Below are positions 33,074 through 61,824 of a stretch of DNA of 64,000 bases, in pieces (positions within the stretch are counted from its first letter, which is position 1; the number at the start of each line of letters is the position of its first letter). This DNA comes from Terriglobia bacterium (GTDB taxonomy: Bacteria; Acidobacteriota; Terriglobia; Acidiferrales; UBA7541), in NCBI GenBank assembly GCA_963695545.1, contig OY968796.1, positions 3,712,001-3,776,000 of the forward strand, read 5' to 3'. Position numbers and translations under genes: made by a program. Under the pieces are notes generated by a model. The model saw nothing but the letters and a program-made list of their open reading frames with translations, was not told the DNA's origin and did no database searches.

Positions 33074-33103
33074 TTGACACTCTGGTAAGCAACGTGCTAA
33101 TCT
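33074..33103 (+). promoter_or_regulatory. promoter of repeat-leader/Zn-finger cassette copy 1
   Basis: TTGACA-N18-TAATCT with extended TG; same geometry as copy 2. Confidence 0.75.
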
Positions 33104-33171
33104 CTCGCATGACACACCGGCAATCCATCCCGTTTGACGCCGGCATCCGTCCCGGTTCCTCGTTTTTCGCC

Positions 33172-33301
33172 GCAACGCTTGTGTTTTCAATCGATTCCAA
33201 ACTGCTCGTGCACACATTTCTCGCAACTCACGTATTTACATCGCATTACGAACTGCCTACCCGGGGTACCCCCCCTTATCTCACCTAGAATGGAGCCTCA
33301 C
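33172..33301 (+). repeat. conserved non-coding leader with degenerate GCAA-N12-CA(A/T)-N4-TT(A/C)C units and GGGGTACCCC palindrome
   Basis: aligns with 58872-59061 (minus strand); units at 33172 and 33223. Confidence 0.75.
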
Positions 33302-51472: not shown

Positions 51473-53443
51473 CTAGTCGGGCAAAATCCGGGGAGTTACG
51501 AAGAACAGCAGCTCCTGCGAGGAGACGCTCACAGAAGTTTCCTTAAACAGATGCCCGATCAGCGGAATGCTGCCGATTATCGGCACCTGGTTGACGTTGT
51601 TTTCCTGGCTCGACACGATCACGCCGCCGATCACGACGGTTCCGCCGTCGCGAATCAGCACTTTGGTGGTGGCCGATTGCGTATCGAGGGCCGGGATGCC
51701 GGAGATGCGCGGTATGCCGTTATCGATCTGCGTATTCTCGACGTCCACGTCGAGGAACACCGTGCCGTCAGCGGTGATCTGCGGAGTGACTTCGAGCTTC
51801 AGCACGGCGTCCACGTATTGCACGGAGATCGTGTCATTGATGGTAGTCTGAATCGGAATCTCTTCGCCCTGCTTCACCGTCAGCTTCTCGTTGTTCTGCG
51901 TGACGCCTTCGGGTTCGGAGAGCAATTTGCCCACGCCCTTGTTCTCCATCGCCGTAATCACGTAGTCGAGTGCGTAGTTCGCGGCGGTGCGAGCGAAGGC
52001 GATGCCCGAGGTCGGAGCCACGGCCGGGAAATTGGTCAGCAACGGCAGAATATCCGTAGTGCCCGCGGCGGTGATTGGAAGCGTGGCACCGGTATGCGTG
52101 ATGGTGCTTGCTACGCCGCTGCCGCCGCCGATGACGTTTGAGCCGCCTGCACCATAGCCGATGCCGAGGCCAAGCTGACTGCCAATATCTCGCGCGAATG
52201 CACGTGAGGCTTCGACCACGCGGGCTTCGATCTCGACTTGCTGCGATTTGCGGTCCAGTTGGCGGAGAAGATCGTCAATCGTGGGCAACACGGCCGGAAC
52301 GTCTCGGATGATCAAGCTGTTCGAGCGATCGTCGGCCAGGATGTCACCGCGCGGCGAAAGGAAGCGCTTGAGCGTGGTGGCCATGGTGGCGGCCTTGGCG
52401 TAGCTGAGCACGCGCGTGACGGTCACCAACTCCACGGACGCCGCCTGGGCATTGGCCAGGGTGCGCTTGGCTTCGGCCTCTTTGCGCACGGTGTCCTGCG
52501 TCGCGATGCGCAAAACGTTTCCATCAATTTGGCTGGTCAGATCGTTGTTTTGCAGCACGATGTCCAGCGCCTGATCCCACGGCACTTCATCAAGCACCAG
52601 GGTGACCGTGCCGTGAACGGCAGGGTCCACCACGATGTTCAGGCCGCTGATCTCGTGAATCAAACGGAAGAAGTCTTTGAGGTCGACGTCTTTCAGGTTC
52701 ACCGAAATCGGCTCGCCCGTATATTTCTTCTCCGCGGGAGCCATCGGCCCCGCGCCTGTGCCTTGAATCGGAGTCGGATCGCCGGGCTCAAGCTTGGCTT
52801 CGACGACGGCAAACGGCGGAGCGGCTTGCTGCGATGGAGATTGGACTTGCGACGCAGATTGCGTTTGTGCGGCGGCTTGCTGCGGCGCCGGCGCCGGAGG
52901 ATCGTTTGTAGGTGCGGCGAACGAAGAGGCGTCGGTCGTCAGCCAAGTGGGCAGTGACATTTGCGGAACGTTGTTCACCGCGGCCGGAGAAGCGGACGCT
53001 CGATGCGAATCGCTTTCAGCTGTGTCGCTTGAAAACGTGATGGTCAGGCCGGAGGCGTCGGTTTGCACTCGATCGGCCACCACGTGATCAAGATCGATTA
53101 CCAGGCGAACTGCGCCGGCGGTAGATTGCCCCAGGCGTATTCCGCGAACGGGTTCGATCGTGTTCGCGACGGGACGATTTGAGGTCATGAGGCGCGCATT
53201 CGAGAAGTCCAGCACGAGCCGCGGCGGATTCTCGAGCCGCGTCTGCTGATAGACGAGCGGCGCGCCGGCGTCCACGCGCACGGTGATCTCGCGGCCCGAT
53301 TGCGCAATGTGCACGGCGGAGATGGCGGGCGTGTTGGCGTTGCTCGTAGGCAATGTTCCGGCTCCGGCCCACACCGTCGCCACGGCGGCGCTGAAAACGA
53401 ATATCAGGCAGGCGAGCCGGGAACCCGGCCAGTGATTCTTCAT
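51473..53443 (-). CDS. pilQ: type IV pilus secretin with AMIN domain
   Basis: YTGEPIS, VPWDQALD, QVEIEARVVEA, GGTVVIGG, ELLFFVTPRI. Confidence 0.95.
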   Translation of the reverse strand: MKNHWPGSRLACLIFVFSAAVATVWAGAGTLPTSNANTPAISAVHIAQSGREITVRVDAGAPLVYQQTRLENPPRLVLDFSNARLMTSNRPVANTIEPVRGIRLGQSTAGAVRLVIDLDHVVADRVQTDASGLTITFSSDTAESDSHRASASPAAVNNVPQMSLPTWLTTDASSFAAPTNDPPAPAPQQAAAQTQSASQVQSPSQQAAPPFAVVEAKLEPGDPTPIQGTGAGPMAPAEKKYTGEPISVNLKDVDLKDFFRLIHEISGLNIVVDPAVHGTVTLVLDEVPWDQALDIVLQNNDLTSQIDGNVLRIATQDTVRKEAEAKRTLANAQAASVELVTVTRVLSYAKAATMATTLKRFLSPRGDILADDRSNSLIIRDVPAVLPTIDDLLRQLDRKSQQVEIEARVVEASRAFARDIGSQLGLGIGYGAGGSNVIGGGSGVASTITHTGATLPITAAGTTDILPLLTNFPAVAPTSGIAFARTAANYALDYVITAMENKGVGKLLSEPEGVTQNNEKLTVKQGEEIPIQTTINDTISVQYVDAVLKLEVTPQITADGTVFLDVDVENTQIDNGIPRISGIPALDTQSATTKVLIRDGGTVVIGGVIVSSQENNVNQVPIIGSIPLIGHLFKETSVSVSSQELLFFVTPRILPD

Positions 53444-54114
53444 TGCGAGTCTCCTGAACTGCTGGGATTCAGTCGTTTCGTCAATTCGCGGTCGACGGGC
53501 TTGCCGAATGCGTCCGTGCCCGTCTGGTGGAAGGTGACGGCGTCAAGCACGATGTGCGTCACCGCGCCGTCGTACAGCTTGTCTCCATCGCGCAGGAAAT
53601 AAACGCGAGCTTGCGGATTCTCCACGATGGCGATCATTCCGTTGGGACCTTGTACGATTCCATCGATGCGCAGCGTGTCCACCATCAGGCCGGCTTTTCC
53701 AGGCGGCAAATTCTCCGGGTGGTTGGACCCCGAATTCGGCGCCTGGAGCAAAGGTGTGAAAGGATCGCGCCGGCCGGCGGTCTCAGCGCCGCTCGAAGGA
53801 GCCGCAGGCGCGGCCGACGGAGCGGCTGGAGCGGAAGCAGCGTTTGCTGCGGCGTTCGCGGCCTTGTGTCCTCTGTGGGGCTTGGCCGGAGACTGCTGCG
53901 CGGCCGCGCTCGATTGGTTTGCGGGCGCGGAGGGCGTCGCGTCCGTGTCTGCGGACGGCGACGAGGCCATCGCGTGATTCATTTGAGTGCGCATCTGGCC
54001 CGGCATGGCCGGAGACTCCTGCGCGCGGACCGGCAGAATTGCTAGGCCAGCCAAAGCCAGAATGGCGGCGAGCGAACGGCAGAACCGAAATTCGATTGGC
54101 AATCGCATCGTCAA
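53440..54114 (-). CDS. pilP: PilP-like pilus assembly protein
   Basis: RRDPF motif, position between pilO and pilQ. Confidence 0.7.
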   Translation of the reverse strand: MTMRLPIEFRFCRSLAAILALAGLAILPVRAQESPAMPGQMRTQMNHAMASSPSADTDATPSAPANQSSAAAQQSPAKPHRGHKAANAAANAASAPAAPSAAPAAPSSGAETAGRRDPFTPLLQAPNSGSNHPENLPPGKAGLMVDTLRIDGIVQGPNGMIAIVENPQARVYFLRDGDKLYDGAVTHIVLDAVTFHQTGTDAFGKPVDRELTKRLNPSSSGDSQ

Positions 54115-54115
54115 C

Positions 54116-54781
54116 TCAGTCGCCCCTTCCCTGCGAGCGAGCCGGTGGGCTGCCCGGCGCCGGGGTTGTCCCCGCCGCGGTTGTCGCAGCTTGGCTTGGC
54201 TTGCTGAAGAATGTGGTCACGGTGCAGGTGCCGCTGACGCTGGTGCCCGGACGCACGGGATAGCCGGTGCCCTTTGTCGGATCCACGGCCGTGAACGTCA
54301 GGTCACCCACATTGATGATTCGGGAGAGGCGGCTCAAGCGCGCGAAGAAGTCCTCGATCGCGTAGTACGGGCCGTCCACTTGAATGTCAAACGGCATCTC
54401 GAAATGGTAGTCGTGCGGGATGATGGCGTCTGCCGTGAGCCGGCGAATCTGCACGCCGGAAGCCGAGGCCGCGCCTTGTAGCATGCGCATAAATTCGTCA
54501 ACCTGCTTGTCCTCAGGGACGATGGCCTGCAGAGTCTCCAGTTGTTTTTGCAGCGCGTTCATTTCCTGGTTGAACGTGGCGTACTGCCGCTCGTAGACCT
54601 GGAGCTGCTGCACTTCCTGCTTCAACTGCCTGTCCTGATCGGTGAGCTGGGTCACCTGAGTGCGTGCCGTGGCCACCGGAGACATGGGAATGTAAATTCC
54701 GGCGACGATCACGATCACCGCCAGGGCCACGAACACCAGCGCCTGGATGTACCACGGAAATTCGCGGAACGATATCGCCAT
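54116..54781 (-). CDS. pilO: type IV pilus assembly protein PilO
   Basis: TM plus coiled coil, G.Y..I..FF..L..L.RII; operon position. Confidence 0.88.
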   Translation of the reverse strand: MAISFREFPWYIQALVFVALAVIVIVAGIYIPMSPVATARTQVTQLTDQDRQLKQEVQQLQVYERQYATFNQEMNALQKQLETLQAIVPEDKQVDEFMRMLQGAASASGVQIRRLTADAIIPHDYHFEMPFDIQVDGPYYAIEDFFARLSRLSRIINVGDLTFTAVDPTKGTGYPVRPGTSVSGTCTVTTFFSKPSQAATTAAGTTPAPGSPPARSQGRGD

Positions 54782-54789
54782 GGCTCTCC

Positions 54790-55446
54790 CTACTCCTTCA
54801 CCGCGGGATGGCCCGCGGGCGGTGCGGCCATCGGAGCGGGACTCGCGCTAGCGGCGGCTGGAGCCGCAACATTTCTGGCTTCCGGAAGCGCAAACTGCGC
54901 CGTCAGCTCGAAAACGAACGTCTGCACGACCTTCTCGCTCGGATCCTGATGCGATTCCTTGATTTCGATCTGATCGAAATATCCAGAGCGCTTCAGCTCG
55001 GTAATGAAATTGGCCACTGCGTTGATCGATGCGGCTTCGCCGGTAATGGCCAGCGAGTCGCCCTTGCGCCCCACCGACGTCAGCCACAATGTATCGGTGC
55101 GCACCACCGTGTTGGCCAGCGCATCCATCAATTCCTGGCCGCCGGTGCGGTTGCGCTGCAACTGTTCGATCACGTCAATGCGTTGCTGCAGGACGTCTTT
55201 TTCGCGCTGGAAATTCTCTACTTGAGTTTTCAGGTTCTCCAAGCGCGCTTTTTCGCCCTGCTGTTTCTGGATGTCGGCCTGAAGCGTGTGCGTTTCGCCG
55301 TCGAGTTGCGCCCAGTAGTACCAGAGCACTCCTACTGAAATCGCGAGAGCCGCGACCAGCAGGATCACCTGGAGCGTGGATTCGAGCGGCACCGTTTGGC
55401 GCGCCGCTTTGGGCCGGACTCTGCCAAGCAGATTGATGCGAATCAT
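54790..55446 (-). CDS. pilN: type IV pilus assembly protein PilN
   Basis: N-terminal MIRINLL motif, LWLT. Confidence 0.9.
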   Translation of the reverse strand: MIRINLLGRVRPKAARQTVPLESTLQVILLVAALAISVGVLWYYWAQLDGETHTLQADIQKQQGEKARLENLKTQVENFQREKDVLQQRIDVIEQLQRNRTGGQELMDALANTVVRTDTLWLTSVGRKGDSLAITGEAASINAVANFITELKRSGYFDQIEIKESHQDPSEKVVQTFVFELTAQFALPEARNVAAPAAASASPAPMAAPPAGHPAVKE

Positions 55447-56495
55447 GGTTGGTCGAAGCTCCTCAGCGCCAAGCCCACCGCAATTGCCAGGCGTGGCGCC
55501 AACTCGCGAATCTGATCCTCGTTATGCCGCCCCGGGTTGATGACGATCTTGCGGAACGGGTAAAACTCTTCCACCGGCATCGCAAACTCTTCGCGCAGCA
55601 ATTCCACAAGTCCGGGCACGCGCGCCGTGCCGCCGGCCACGCAAATCTTCTGGATGTTTTCGCCGCTGGCCGTGGCGCGGAAGAAATCGAAGGTCTTCTG
55701 GATTTCGAGCAGCAAGATATCCGAGACGGACCGCAGAATCTGCGCCTTGTGCTCGTCGGCCACGCCCGCGATGGCTTCGCCCTTCTTCAGGCGCTCCGCG
55801 TCCTCAAAACTCAGATCGAGTTCCTTCTGCAGCGCGTCGGTGTACTGATTGCCGCCCACCGAAACGTCGCGCGTGAATAGCGGGATGCCGCCGCGGATGA
55901 TGTTGATGTTCATCACGCTCGCCCCGATGTTCAGCAGAGCAATCGTCTGGCTGGGGTCCGGGTCGTAATTGACCTCGTAGCAGTTCTGCAGCGCGAAGGC
56001 GTCGATATCCACCACGGTCGGGTTCTTGCCCGCCTGCGCCAGCACGTTCGTGTGGTTCAGAATCTTATCTTTCTTCACAGCCACAAGCAGCACGTCCATC
56101 TGCGAATCCACGGATTCCAGAAGCTGGTAATCGAGATTCACGTCGGCGATATCGAACGGGATGTGCTGGCTAGCCTCGCTCTGAATGCGATCGAAGAGCT
56201 CTTCCTGCGTCATTTGCGGCAGCGTGACCCGCTTCACGATTACGGAATGCCCGGAGACTGAGGTGGCCACGTTTTTCGTTTTGGTCTTCTGCGCGTCGAA
56301 AACGCCGCTGATCGCGCCGGCCACAAGCGGCGCGTCCATAATGGCGCCGTCTACCACAGTGTCTTGTGCCAACGGCTCCAGGCCGAAGCTCACAAGTTCA
56401 TAGCCCTGCTTGGACTCTTTCAGCTCAACCGATTTGACCGAGCTCGACCCGATGTCGAGGCCAACCACGGCAACCTGCTTGGGCTTTCCAAACAT
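55443..56495 (-). CDS. pilM: type IV pilus assembly protein PilM
   Basis: GLDIGSSSVK, HIPF, NIGA, GG.A, AVGLALR. Confidence 0.95.
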   Translation of the reverse strand: MFGKPKQVAVVGLDIGSSSVKSVELKESKQGYELVSFGLEPLAQDTVVDGAIMDAPLVAGAISGVFDAQKTKTKNVATSVSGHSVIVKRVTLPQMTQEELFDRIQSEASQHIPFDIADVNLDYQLLESVDSQMDVLLVAVKKDKILNHTNVLAQAGKNPTVVDIDAFALQNCYEVNYDPDPSQTIALLNIGASVMNINIIRGGIPLFTRDVSVGGNQYTDALQKELDLSFEDAERLKKGEAIAGVADEHKAQILRSVSDILLLEIQKTFDFFRATASGENIQKICVAGGTARVPGLVELLREEFAMPVEEFYPFRKIVINPGRHNEDQIRELAPRLAIAVGLALRSFDQP

Positions 56496-58313: not shown

Positions 58314-58439
58314 AGTATTTCTCCTCGCTGGACTCGTCCGCGTCCTTTAGCTGCTTCGTGTCGCAGGAAACGGAAGCGCTCACTCTAACACGAACCACTC
58401 GTGCCCCGAGGTTCCGGCCGCCGGGGCTTCGCCGGTGAC

Positions 58440-58871
58440 TCAGGCTGGTGGCGGATCGTTCTCGCGGTCGGGACCCGGGATATCCCAGATGATTGGTAAG
58501 TCCTCTTTCTCGCCAAATTTTGGATCGCGTTCGCGCTCGATGGCGCGGAGGGTATGGAGGAGAAGATTGCAGCCGTAGATCAAGACGGCGCCGCGGCGCG
58601 GGGAGATGCGGTCCTGTGCCAGCAGGTGGACAAGTTTGGAGAGAAATTGGTTGACGTCGGAAGCGGAAGTGAATTCCTCGACGCCGGGCATGAGCTGGCG
58701 AGCGAGATCGAGCGGGGTTTCGTCGCCAGGTGGGGGGAGATGGGCGTGGCGTTTGCAGAAGAAGGATGAGTTCTTGGAGATGGGAAGGCGGCATCGGCGA
58801 CCTGTGGGGAAACGGCGCATGCAGCGAGTCAACTCATTGGCAGAGCGGGACTTCGGATTATTCTTGGTCAT
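58440..58871 (-). CDS. hypothetical C-x9-C-x11-C-x2-H (putative Zn-finger) protein, paralog 2
   Basis: shares RC.RRFP.G.RCRLPI, EFTSASDVNQFLS, QDRISPRRGAVL, CNLLLHTLRAI with 33302..33814. Confidence 0.85.
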   Translation of the reverse strand: MTKNNPKSRSANELTRCMRRFPTGRRCRLPISKNSSFFCKRHAHLPPPGDETPLDLARQLMPGVEEFTSASDVNQFLSKLVHLLAQDRISPRRGAVLIYGCNLLLHTLRAIERERDPKFGEKEDLPIIWDIPGPDRENDPPPA

Positions 58872-59061
58872 GGGCGTCTCCAGTCGAGCTGAGATAGGGG
58901 GTACACCCCCGGGTATGTTTTGCGTAAGAGATTCATAAGGCGGGACTTGCAGAAAAAGAGTGACAAAGAGTGCGTAACGGATTGAAAACAGTCGATTTGC
59001 AACTGTTTATTTTCAACGAGATGCGCACTCTTTTGCAATGCATTGAACATGAATAATTTAG
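58872..59061 (-). repeat. conserved non-coding leader with degenerate units and long imperfect inverted repeat
   Basis: units at 58924-58950, 58974-59000, 59035-59061 plus an inverted unit at 58999-59024; GGGGG/CCCCC hairpin at 58897-58910. Confidence 0.75.
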
Positions 59062-59428
59062 AGCGACGGATTTGTACGAGTGAGCGCGTTTCGGTTGAAT
59101 TGTATCGATGATATTTGGTAGGCGAGATGAGGCAGGACGAAGAGGGGTCCTTCGGCTCGTCCGCCTCTGCGGACTCGCTCAGGACTCGCATCCTTGGCCG
59201 GATGCTCGGCTTAGAGCGACGGATTTGTACGAGTGAGCGCGATTCGATTGAAATGTATCGATGATATTTGGTAGGCGAGATGAGGCAGGACGAGGAGGGG
59301 TCCTTCGGCTCGTCCGCCTCTGCGGACTCGCTCAGGACTCGCATCCTTGGCCGGATGCGCGGCTTAGAGCGACAGATTTGTACAAGCAAGCGCGATTCGA
59401 TCGAATTGTATCGATGATATTTGGTAGG
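59058..59428. repeat. 153-bp tandem repeat (two full copies plus a ~65-bp partial) containing REP-like hairpins
   Basis: near-identical copies start at 59058, 59211 and 59364. Confidence 0.95.
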
Positions 59429-59541
59429 GCGGGCACGACGGGCGGAGGCGATGTTGCCACGGCGAGCAGGCTCCGCCGCTAGATACCGAAAATTCTTCGC
59501 GACAACGAGAGGCGGGCGTATACGCTTCCAGTTCATGCGGA

Positions 59542-59571
59542 AGCATAGCACCATTGTTAACTATATGTCAA
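59542..59571 (-). promoter_or_regulatory. promoter of repeat-leader/Zn-finger cassette copy 2
   Basis: TTGACA-N18-TATGCT with extended TG, ATG 5 nt downstream. Confidence 0.75.
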
Positions 59572-59728: not shown

Positions 59729-60007
59729 ATGATCCTGCGCTTTCGTCATAAGGGGCTGGAACGGCTCTTTGCCTCGGGCGACACGCGAGGGGTGAACCCT
59801 CAACACGCGAAGCGTTTGCGTCGTCTGCTGGCGTCGCTTTCGACTGCGACGATCCCGCTGAACATGAACATTGCCGGCTATCAGCTGCATCCGCTCGCGG
59901 GCGAGCGCAAGGGCGAGTGGGCCGTCTCGGTGTCGGGCAATTGGCGGCTGGTGTTTCGCTTCGACGGTGAAAACGCGACCGATGTTGATTTGGTGGACTA
60001 CCACTAG
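59729..60007 (+). CDS. higB: HigB toxin (RelE/ParE family)
   Basis: F.HKGL, LHPLAG.R.G.W.VSVSGNWRL.F.F, VDYH end. Confidence 0.93.
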   Translation: MILRFRHKGLERLFASGDTRGVNPQHAKRLRRLLASLSTATIPLNMNIAGYQLHPLAGERKGEWAVSVSGNWRLVFRFDGENATDVDLVDYH

Positions 60008-60025
60008 CAAGAGGAGAAAAGGCAC

Positions 60026-60322
60026 ATGGATATGTACAATCCCCCGCACCCCGGTGAGATCGTTCGGGAGGACTGCCTGAAGGCGCTCGATCTGACCGTG
60101 ACCGAGGCGGCGAAGGGCTTAGGCGTCACGCGCAAGACGCTCTCGTCGATTCTCAACGGGCGCTCCGGCGTCACGGCCGAAATGGCGCTGCGGCTGTCGA
60201 AGGCGTTCGGGAGCACGCCGGAGCACTGGTTGCAGATGCAGCTCGCCTACGATCTGTGGCAAGCGAAGCGGCGCGCCAAGAAGCTGCGCGTCAAGCAGTT
60301 CGTCGCCACGGCGCCGGGGTAG
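60026..60322 (+). CDS. higA: HigA antitoxin (HTH)
   Basis: PPHPGEI, AAKGLGVTR.TLS, MALRL, WL.MQ..YDLW. Confidence 0.95.
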   Translation: MDMYNPPHPGEIVREDCLKALDLTVTEAAKGLGVTRKTLSSILNGRSGVTAEMALRLSKAFGSTPEHWLQMQLAYDLWQAKRRAKKLRVKQFVATAPG

Positions 60323-60561: not shown

Positions 60562-61824
60562 ATGCGAAACGTCTTCGATCAATATCGCCATCCAGAAAAC
60601 CGACTTACGCACGCGCTCGCCTCCTCGCTAGAGGCTGACCGTCGTTTGCTTCATCGATTTGTTCGGTGGGTGACGGGTCGCGCCGACAAAGTTCCTCACG
60701 ATCTGGAGATTGTGGAGCAGCAACTCCCTGGCGAAGAAGAAGTGCGGGATGAGGACGAGACCGAGCGCCGCGGCCTGCCGGATGCTTGGATTCACGATGA
60801 CGATACGTGGGCTCTCATTATAGAAAGCAAAATCCAAGCCCGTCTTACAAAGGGGCAACTTGATCGTCATCGTCGTACCGCCGAGCTTCGCGGATTCTCA
60901 GACATCAATCTTGTCGCCTTCGTTTCGCAGCGCCCACAACGACCCGTCTCCGACCGCGTGAAAATTGTCGAGTGGACGAAGCTCTATTCCTGGATGCGGG
61001 GCGAAGGGGCATCAGAATGGGCGCGTCGATTAACGGCGTACATGGAAGTGCTTGAGCGAAAGCTTGTCGAGGACGATTATCTAAAGGAGGGAACAATTAC
61101 CGTGTTTTCTGGCGTTCCTTTTGGTCGAGACTATCCCTACAACTATCATGAGGCCAGGCGACTGATACGCCTCGCTCTCAGTGAGCTGAGAGGGAGACGT
61201 GACTTGCGGCAAGACGCCTGGTTGAATCCTGGAGGCAAGGGGCGACCTGCCATTACGGGACGGGATGGTTCTTCCGTATGGGATCTCCTTCCGCTCGCAA
61301 GAGCGCAATCTGCGAAGAATTTCACGGAATATCCCCACCTGTCTCTTGGCATTAATCGAAAATATATGGACGCGGGCGTCACGATTCCGGACGGGATTCG
61401 GCGGAAATTTCGCCGTAACCTTCTCGCGGGAGGCAGGGAAGGATTCTTGGAACTGTTTGGGGAGGTCCACAACAATCTACGGAGGTCGCTCGCAGCAGTC
61501 GAAGGCGCGGCGCCGCACGCCGAAATCGTCCAGCGTCACTTTCCTTCGCGGCGTGCTGCGCCCATCATCGACGCCAAACTCCAGTTTGATCTACGGACTG
61601 CGTTCACTAGCCCCAAGGGCTGGCGAGAATCGGTTAAACAGCAGCCCGAATGGCTTGAAGCAGTCTACGAAGTGCTTTCCGGAAAGCAGTCAAATATCCA
61701 GTTTACGGTGGGCGCAGTTTTTCCGTATAAGCGATGCCGTGCCGTAAACACGCCGATGATCTTGGATCACGTCGCCCGCGTCTGGCTCGCGTGCAGACCG
61801 CTGATCAGAAAAATGTTGGAATAG
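60562..61824 (+). CDS. hypothetical protein with N-terminal PD-(D/E)XK nuclease-like domain
   Basis: EN.LT N-terminus, LPDAWI...LIIESK motif; lower-GC codon usage. Confidence 0.7.
   Translation: MRNVFDQYRHPENRLTHALASSLEADRRLLHRFVRWVTGRADKVPHDLEIVEQQLPGEEEVRDEDETERRGLPDAWIHDDDTWALIIESKIQARLTKGQLDRHRRTAELRGFSDINLVAFVSQRPQRPVSDRVKIVEWTKLYSWMRGEGASEWARRLTAYMEVLERKLVEDDYLKEGTITVFSGVPFGRDYPYNYHEARRLIRLALSELRGRRDLRQDAWLNPGGKGRPAITGRDGSSVWDLLPLARAQSAKNFTEYPHLSLGINRKYMDAGVTIPDGIRRKFRRNLLAGGREGFLELFGEVHNNLRRSLAAVEGAAPHAEIVQRHFPSRRAAPIIDAKLQFDLRTAFTSPKGWRESVKQQPEWLEAVYEVLSGKQSNIQFTVGAVFPYKRCRAVNTPMILDHVARVWLACRPLIRKMLE

Follow-up and report, generated by a model that had tools for sequence, protein, structure and literature searches.

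An array of ~27-nt units and a hairpin ahead of a zinc-finger-like gene form the core of one copy of a dispersed repeat family in an acidobacterial genome

Introduction

What is an array of short, degenerate repeat units doing in the leader of a small zinc-finger-like gene? This question is raised by positions 58872-59120 of a 64,000-nt stretch of DNA from a Terriglobia bacterium of the phylum Acidobacteriota (assembly GCA_963695545.1, contig OY968796.1, positions 3,712,001 to 3,776,000 of the forward strand), which we call the window. The window contains two copies of a cassette in which a leader precedes a gene for a CCCH zinc-finger-like protein. The array lies in the leader of copy 2, together with a long imperfect hairpin. 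An original prediction, made from the sequence alone, proposed that the ~27-nt units are iterated binding sites for a protein or recombinase, or else a mini array that is processed into small RNAs. We report here that array and hairpin make up the conserved core of a repeat dispersed over the genome, of which this leader contains one copy, rather than a control region that serves the zinc-finger gene alone. There is good support for placing both features within a larger repeat family that has apparently not been described before. A few well-studied bacteria are known to carry small interspersed repeats; for soil Acidobacteriota, we found no description of a case with the combination of features presented below. 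Coordinates are window positions unless they are marked as genome positions, and the genome size is 4.16 Mb.

Results

The leader of copy 2 is repeated across the genome. Searching the genome with the 259-nt leader (nhmmer, single sequence) returned 93 hits at 88 places. An alignment of 16 full copies showed sharp element ends ~225 nt apart, with a GC palindrome at the 3' end. Searches with a profile built from these 16 copies returned 131 and then 169 hits, including 79-81 long copies, which we defined as those covering at least 140 profile positions. The genome search, alignment, and profile together place a full copy of this interspersed repeat (family 1) at 58896..59122 on the minus strand, running from the 5' module to the terminal GC palindrome. 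The palindrome (58897..58910, no strand) consists of GGGGG, a 4-nt loop, and CCCCC, and it marks the 3' end of most family copies. According to our own rough set of 3,305 gene calls, 87 of the 88 places are intergenic. The genes downstream of the copies are unrelated to one another and include gpmI, aroA, fabH, a thiI-like gene, and a nitrilase-like gene. The original prediction had tied the array to the zinc-finger gene family. A zinc-finger gene follows at just 3 of the 88 places, and the array is therefore not private to it.

The copies have diverged considerably, with a median pairwise identity of 68% and a maximum of 95%. The closest other copy to copy 2 (genome 2955817-2956041) is 83% identical by BLAST and 82% identical over the aligned profile columns. 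Nothing in these values suggests very recent spread. Subfamilies differ by a 10-nt block and by the presence of the 5' module. The family has the modularity of composite repeats: its internal units vary in number, and the 5' module of copy 2 is present 2.4 times in tandem. This tandem repeat (59058..59428, no strand) has a period of 153 nt and 94-97% identity between units, and its first copy makes up the 3' end of the flagged interval (59058-59120). Two modules compose the 153-nt repeat (its positions 1-65 and 85-152), and each matches a separate set of places in the genome. Short-read contigs from four soil DNA runs of one study break at the element edges, where the summed depth is 4-15x that of the flanks.

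The long copies are also spaced evenly. For 81 long copies, the coefficient of variation (CV) of the gaps was 0.55, compared with 0.98 +/- 0.10 for the null, and none of 20,000 random intergenic draws gave a value as low. No two long copies lie closer together than 6.9 kb, whereas the null gave a median smallest gap of 1.2 kb. Long copies showed no replication-strand bias (38 of 81 co-oriented).

We searched for the units themselves with the pattern SYAA-N12-SAA-N4-TTRC, taken from the original prediction, in both the window and the genome. The predicted array is present: the window contains exactly three matches, all on the minus strand, with start-to-start distances of 61 and 50 nt. The expected number is 0.30 (sd 0.54), and 1 of 100 shuffles reached three matches. 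Because the pattern was fitted post hoc, the window count alone is weak. Across the genome there are 54 matches, compared with ~13.5 expected from base composition, and 28 of the 54 fall inside the coverage of the family profile (16,579 bases, 0.4% of the genome). This concentration indicates that the motif is real.

The three direct units of copy 2 that fit the pattern lie on the minus strand at 59035..59061 (unit 1), 58974..59000 (unit 2), and 58924..58950 (unit 3, degenerate). A further unit at 58999..59038 has the same motif order on the plus strand, as seen in the sequence and in the family alignment. This inverted unit supplies the 5' arm of a transcript hairpin, and the GCACTCTTT end of unit 2 supplies the 3' arm. 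The original prediction had described a long imperfect hairpin arising from one unit inverted against its neighbor, and both parts of that description were borne out. The hairpin (58963..59036, minus strand) has an outer stem of ~10 bp, an internal loop, an inner stem of ~7 bp, and a copy-specific apical stem. Its predicted folding energy as RNA is -26.0 kcal/mol, compared with -13.3 +/- 2.9 kcal/mol for shuffled sequences (z -4.41), and 0 of 200 shuffles were as stable. As DNA it folds at -16.7 kcal/mol (z -3.82). Two similar units had been reported in copy 1 at 33172 and 33223. Both are present, though neither strictly fits the pattern (TTCC for TTRC; CAT for SAA).

A per-column conservation profile of 79 family copies peaks on the unit ends, which are the short blocks singled out in the original prediction. 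The conserved blocks consist of a CAA-type start, TTTTCAA, a TT(A/G)C-type end, and then GCACTCTTT. Each element has ~5 of these blocks, one of them inverted, and 119 of the 133 genomic GCACTCTTT sites lie inside the family. The idea of iterated sites with fixed ends and variable interiors therefore stands as far as the conserved iterated motifs and their more variable interiors are concerned, but the interiors are not unique spacers, since ~80 copies share them. Both outer arms of the hairpin, allowing up to 2 mismatches each, are present in 71 of the 79 copies. Base pairs form in 90.3% of 790 cells of the outer stem, where 13 of 90 variant cells still pair, including 2 double changes. Pairing in the inner stem extends to 78.2% of 473 cells; among its 108 variant cells, 5 remain paired, with 1 double change. 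We detected no covariation in the hairpin across the family copies, and RNAalifold retained only short stems when run on the family. What the family keeps is the sequence of the motif, in both orientations, and not its pairing. The hairpin is then a consequence of this conservation.

The array is not a CRISPR array, in agreement with the original prediction, because its units are degenerate, one unit is inverted, and the interiors are common to ~80 copies. The inter-unit spacers do not appear foreign. Positions 58872-59130 had no match to the phage and plasmid collections at E<=0.001, and within the genome itself the spacers are shared with some 80 copies at a median identity of 68%. A Pfam scan of 25 open reading frames (ORFs) in the window found no Cas families; a genome-wide search for cas genes was not made. 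Rfam gave no match in the window at the gathering score and nothing relevant at E<=1 in 10 leaders. The suggested co-occurrence with tyrosine recombinases was not found: the genome has 5 Phage_integrase genes, and the distance from each to its closest long copy is 4.4-25.8 kb. We rejected an integron attC or recombinase site array because no tyrosine recombinase is adjacent to the copies. An array of integration host factor (IHF) sites was also rejected: the IHF consensus WATCAANNNNTTR occurs at 57 sites in the genome, and 4 of these fall inside the 169 family hits.

In copy 2 the element lies behind a promoter-like site and within a long reading frame. The site (59542..59571, minus strand) consists of TTGACA, an 18-nt spacer, and a TG-extended TATGCT; its hexamers match at 10 of 12 positions, and the TG is present. 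A 228-codon leader frame in the ORF list (58868..59554, minus strand) begins with an ATG at 59554-59552, 5 nt past the -10 box, and ends with a TGA at 58870-58868 that overlaps the zinc-finger ATG in the sequence ATGA. The tandem repeat unit of 153 nt equals 51 codons, so the frame is kept through it. A Shine-Dalgarno-like GGAGA (58877..58881, minus strand) lies 5 nt ahead of the zinc-finger ATG. The zinc-finger-like gene that follows (58440..58871, minus strand) codes for 143 aa. Comparing the repeats of the two loci identified the copy 1 counterpart at 33074..33288 on the plus strand; the two loci form a complementary repeat with 73-81% identity. Copy 1 has a promoter-like site at 33074-33103, an ATG at 33109, and a 59-codon leader frame ending in a TAG at 33286-33288, with 13 nt between this TAG and the zinc-finger ATG (33302). 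Its two unit relatives and a palindrome (33263-33272) lie inside this leader.

The same arrangement recurs in the family. The promoter pattern is found within 420 nt upstream of 64 of the 88 copies on the same strand and of 8 of the 88 on the opposite strand, with 450 pattern sites in the whole genome. We examined the 54 copies that have both the promoter pattern and the 3' end of the element. These copies have an ATG or GTG 3-5 nt past the -10 box, and the frame set by this start codon is free of stops to the element end in 45 of 54. In the two other forward frames this holds for 3 and 7 copies, and in the three reverse frames for 1, 0, and 0. Stops total 15 in the start-codon frame, compared with 122, 106, 177, 200, and 207 in the other five. 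Mismatches to the consensus are spread over codon positions 1, 2, and 3 (23.0, 21.4, and 22.9%), and reading of the conserved block at column 91 falls in phase 0 for 22 copies, phase 1 for 25, and phase 2 for 10. The absence of codon-position bias and the use of all three phases rule out the leader peptide as a conserved coding product. Several leader frames continue in frame into a real downstream gene.

Few copies of the repeat precede zinc-finger genes; conversely, all four paralogs in this genome and all 21 homolog loci that we inspected (10 genera) have upstream unit arrays and a G-rich palindrome. A promoter-like site and start codon were found in 12 of the 21 zinc-finger leaders, from 3 genera, and the leader frame stops between -13 and +20 of the gene ATG in 10 of these 12. 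The ATGA overlap occurs at three zinc-finger leaders (L001, L016, and L017). This geometry at the leader end is that of termination-reinitiation coupling, and the leaders may be translated. The copy 2 leader has more in common with unrelated family copies (82%) than with its paralogs' leaders (E 1e-12 and 1e-3), which suggests that it was replaced or converted.

The arrays upstream of zinc-finger genes are not all of one family. A second family of unit arrays, with a different sequence, has 23 matches in the same genome. Its example ahead of the fourth zinc-finger paralog (L004:1230-1400; genome 524576-524746) has a putative promoter, an ATG 5 nt past the -10 box, and a G-rich palindrome, and its open frame stops 2 nt ahead of the gene ATG. 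In another genus, the array ahead of a zinc-finger gene follows the same architecture with its own sequence and is likewise dispersed, with 26 matches in the genome concerned.

The zinc-finger protein itself belongs to no family that we could recognize. C17, C27, C39, and H42 are invariant in 21 homologs (a Cys3-His pattern). Searches of Pfam, NCBIfam, and PHROG gave no match. The AlphaFold model has a predicted local distance difference test (pLDDT) score of 72.7, and Foldseek found no match to it in the PDB at E<=0.001 (best E 1.5). Using tblastn, we compared the window's UbiD, oxidoreductase, Kdo hydroxylase, and HigB with the zinc-finger paralog loci of relatives. No match was found that could establish orthology of the three close zinc-finger paralogs.

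The repeat family is restricted to close relatives among the genomes we searched. BLAST matches were found only in the same genus (18 in G003, 11 in G004, and 1 in G002). Of the other 36 genomes, 35 had no match, and G022 had just a 25-nt match. Four sister genomes carry UbiD orthologs that are 89-97% identical, with neither a zinc-finger gene nor the element upstream. Homology with the sister genomes restarts at UbiD's own promoter-like sequence, near 58395-58410. Compared with G003, ~9.3 kb of DNA is extra here (window ~58410 to past 64000; genome 3770410-3779752). This DNA holds cassette copy 2 and small orphan ORFs, along with a HigB-like and helix-turn-helix antitoxin (HigB/HigA) pair (59729-60322), a PD-(D/E)XK-like ORF (60562-61824), and a MacB/FtsX-type permease (62620 onward).

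The element was absent from all 12 orthologous sites that we compared, upstream of gpmI (G001 and G002), aroA (G001-G005), and fabH (G001-G005), as judged by a profile search at E<0.1 and by eye. The proximal promoter-like sequences of gpmI, aroA, and fabH are conserved in those sister genomes. At gpmI, the filled site (G000) and the empty sites (G001 and G002) are too diverged for a target-site duplication to be read from the junctions. The family shares high copy number, intergenic location, and presence/absence polymorphism with classical MITEs, the miniature transposable elements with inverted repeats. We saw no terminal inverted repeats, another classical MITE trait; the ends are not complementary by eye in the 16-copy alignment.

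Several other repeats and features of the window and genome came to our attention. A ~95-nt dispersed repeat, unrelated to the units, lies roughly 120-220 nt upstream of UbiD in one sister genome (L058, G003:C181) and has 12 further matches in the window's genome at 76-92% identity. Three Y1_Tnp loci (L081, L079, and L080; genome 1.47, 1.20, and 1.39 Mb) are bracketed by their own palindromes of 19-45 nt, and a GTAG-tagged palindrome of one type also occurs downstream of some cassette copies. The leader of the single 16S gene (genome 1602322-1602600) has a promoter-like site ~245 nt upstream and a boxA-type GCTCTTTGACAA after a hairpin. By eye, we noticed no 23S-like sequence in the 700 nt downstream of the 16S gene, and the DNA has a protein-coding look past ~300 nt. 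Throughout the window (1-64000), the sign of the GC skew tracks gene orientation, with negative values for plus-strand genes and positive values for minus-strand genes. The cumulative minimum, at ~34-35 kb, coincides with the convergent switch in gene direction beside cassette copy 1; the genome-wide extremes lie elsewhere, at 0.65 and 3.45 Mb. Downstream of UbiD, a type IV pilus operon (pilM-pilN-pilO-pilP-like-secretin (pilQ)) occupies 51473-56495 on the minus strand.

Discussion

We consider it probable that the flagged copy is part of a ~225-nt repeat (79-88 copies) that sits behind a promoter-like site, within a frame for which translation from a 5'-terminal start codon of the transcript is likely, and that the units are likely recognition motifs used across the family. 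In this explanation, the copy 2 transcript would start at the promoter-like site (59542-59571). Ribosomes would initiate on the leaderless AUG at 59554 and read 228 codons across the 153-nt tandem repeat and the unit array. On their way the ribosomes would open both the unit hairpin (-26 kcal/mol) and the GC hairpin; they would terminate at the UGA, which shares bases with the zinc-finger AUG (ATGA), and reinitiate at that AUG. In this way the cassette would be a promoter that can move and that brings along a translated leader. Since the conservation of the units depends neither on frame nor on pairing, some factor shared by every copy would bind them, either on DNA or on the transcript.

Several points weigh against this explanation. 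Transcription, leaderless initiation, and coupling are all read from sequence features, and the factor that would read the units is likewise postulated. No promoter match was found for 24 of the 88 copies, and 9 of the 54 leader frames hold a stop. The zinc-finger gene has its own GGAGA, so coupling is not required for its translation. By our crude gene calls, 28 of the 88 copies face a convergent gene from its 3' side, and the four flank classes (32, 28, 18, and 10) come close to what random orientation between genes would give. Serving as the leader of a downstream gene therefore cannot be the cassette's only role. Finally, the copies are related, so their counts are not independent; the conservation of the units could partly reflect shared descent or gene conversion and not selection.

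Other explanations account for parts of the data. The units could work at the level of DNA, as an array of sites bound by a protein that serves the whole family, such as a transposase or recombinase, a nucleoid protein, or the CCCH proteins. Arrays of subterminal binding sites are found at the ends of Tn7 and Mu. We judge this reading unlikely, yet a serious possibility: the motif is equally conserved in direct and inverted units while hairpin variants lose pairing, the element was gained or lost between sister genomes, the copies are evenly spaced, and unit arrays occur in all 21 zinc-finger leaders examined. However, the element ends lack terminal inverted repeats, no transposase is consistently found beside the copies, and the zinc-finger protein has no recognizable DNA-binding fold or family. 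The array also lies 100-300 nt downstream of the promoter-like site, within a frame that is kept open, and in the other genera examined all units are oriented along transcription. Alternatively, the family could be a selfish, non-autonomous mobile element in decay, with units that are old functionless duplications conserved through descent and gene conversion. High copy number, intergenic location, insertion polymorphism, and near-random orientation to neighbors are all as such an element would have them, and the modular BOX elements of pneumococci, which also contain open frames, are judged parasitic by their authors (PMC3049150). This account is decidedly doubtful in our view. The motif blocks are nearly invariant despite the 68% median pairwise identity, one frame is stop-free in 45 of 54 copies though its phase varies by copy, and regular spacing is unexpected under neutral decay.

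The remaining candidates explain less. The inverted unit pair could be a doublet of repetitive extragenic palindromes (REP) that is moved as single-stranded DNA by a REP-associated tyrosine transposase (RAYT) or an IS200-like Y1 transposase. A hairpin of two inverted ~35-nt units is the form described for REP doublets forming hairpins (REPINs) in the accessible parts of PMC3116915 and PMC3337134, the copies contain such a doublet (both arms in 71 of 79 copies; hairpin z -4.4 in copy 2), and 4 of the 6 Y1_Tnp genes in the genome lie within 4 kb of a long copy. This reading fails at the three of six Y1 loci that we examined, because other palindromes, their own, flank the transposase genes there. 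In addition, the element is a 225-nt unit with direct units and a promoter-like site and not a bare doublet, no GTAG or CGTC tag was seen by eye at the unit ends, and six transposase genes do not fit the single-copy pattern of RAYTs described in the portion of PMC5581495 available to us. We consider a REPIN very unlikely. The chance is at least as slim that the unit ends and GC hairpin form an antitermination signal that would let RNA polymerase resist termination along the leader, corresponding to boxA and boxB of the ribosomal RNA operon (rrn) or lambda nut type. The 16S leader of this genome has GCTCTTTGACAA ~160 nt ahead of the 16S gene with a hairpin before it, the most conserved unit end in copy 2 resembles GCTCTTTGACAA at 10 of 13 positions by eye, and a long leader would need protection from Rho. 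However, the genome has just two sites of the rrn-type GCTCTTT[AG]ACAA, both outside the family, only 8 of 169 family hits contain the lambda-type octamer, and the resemblance is not a feature of the family. Processing of a mini array into small RNAs, whether CRISPR-like or as a small-RNA precursor, is scarcely credible, even though repeated units spaced 50-61 nt apart do lie in a putatively transcribed region. The interiors are common to ~80 other copies and have no phage or plasmid match, one unit is inverted, and there is no Rfam match even at E<=1. Because the array sits inside a reading frame that the family keeps open, 50-60-nt products of the kind suggested in the original prediction are unlikely.

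The explanation we favor, a promoter-bearing repeat with a translated leader and shared recognition motifs, can be taken further. The ~27-nt units might be the address label of a genome-wide system in which ~100 evenly spaced, promoter-bearing, ribosome-read cassettes would answer to one trans-acting factor, most plausibly the orphan CCCH proteins. We regard this extension as speculative and rather improbable; if true, it would represent a new kind of mobile regulatory or chromosome-organizing network in Acidobacteriota. If the favored mechanism holds, ~100 genes per genome would have their expression rewired by the cassettes, which would also be a natural choice as a portable expression module. 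In annotation, no single copy of the repeat should be taken for a riboswitch, a mini CRISPR array, or a regulatory region private to one gene.

We compared the cassette with small repeats and mobile promoters described in other bacteria, as far as the available parts of the cited sources go. BOX elements of Streptococcus pneumoniae and S. suis are composite interspersed repeats with the structure boxA-boxB(n)-boxC (PMC3049150). The family described here resembles them in being short, modular, and intergenic, with a variable number of internal units. Predicted stem-loops in RNA, open frames, positions before unrelated genes, and variability between related genomes are further points in common. 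Unlike BOX elements, the cassette comes with a strong promoter-like site of its own, and a start codon sits where its transcript is predicted to begin. Only a single frame out of six stays open, and one of the internal units runs in the inverted direction. We saw no inverted repeats at the element ends, and the copies lie at regular distances. In Neisseria, the Correia repeat enclosed elements are ~100-150 nt long, with 26-bp inverted repeat ends and an IHF site (PMC2649163). High copy number, intergenic location, the supply of promoters, transcript hairpins, and altered expression of neighboring genes are Correia traits that find a likeness in our family, at least at the level of predicted features. 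Unlike Correia elements, the family shows no terminal inverted repeats, and the IHF consensus is present in only 4 of 169 family hits. Putative mobile promoters are highly similar promoters that are reused before unrelated genes in one genome (PMC3575422). The same promoter-like pattern precedes 64 of the 88 copies on the same strand, with unrelated genes downstream, and may be a comparable case. The cassette differs by adding a conserved leader of 200-650 nt, a leaderless frame, and an internal unit array. As described in these parts of the sources, BOX elements, Correia elements, and putative mobile promoters each lack the full set of a promoter, a transcript that opens with a start codon, one frame that is protected, an internal motif array, and regular spacing. 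We found no description of such a cassette in the available parts of the literature on Acidobacteria, where acidobacterial Y1 transposases are mentioned (PMC3733652).

Two further systems share single features with the cassette. In REPIN/RAYT systems, an inverted pair of units forms a long hairpin that is present in tens to hundreds of copies, according to the accessible sections of PMC3116915, PMC3337134, and PMC3733652. Our family likewise has inverted units that form a long hairpin, many copies, and Y1 transposase genes in the same genome. Unlike REPINs, the element is larger and polar, with a promoter-like site and direct units, and the palindromes that flank the Y1 genes are different ones. 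In mycobacteria, leaderless short ORFs that lie upstream of genes have their start codon at the 5' end of the transcript (PMC4633059, in the part available), and the leader frames of the cassettes would similarly open with a 5'-terminal start codon ahead of a gene. The mycobacterial examples described there are single-locus cases with short frames, whereas the frames reported here belong to a 225-nt repeat family.

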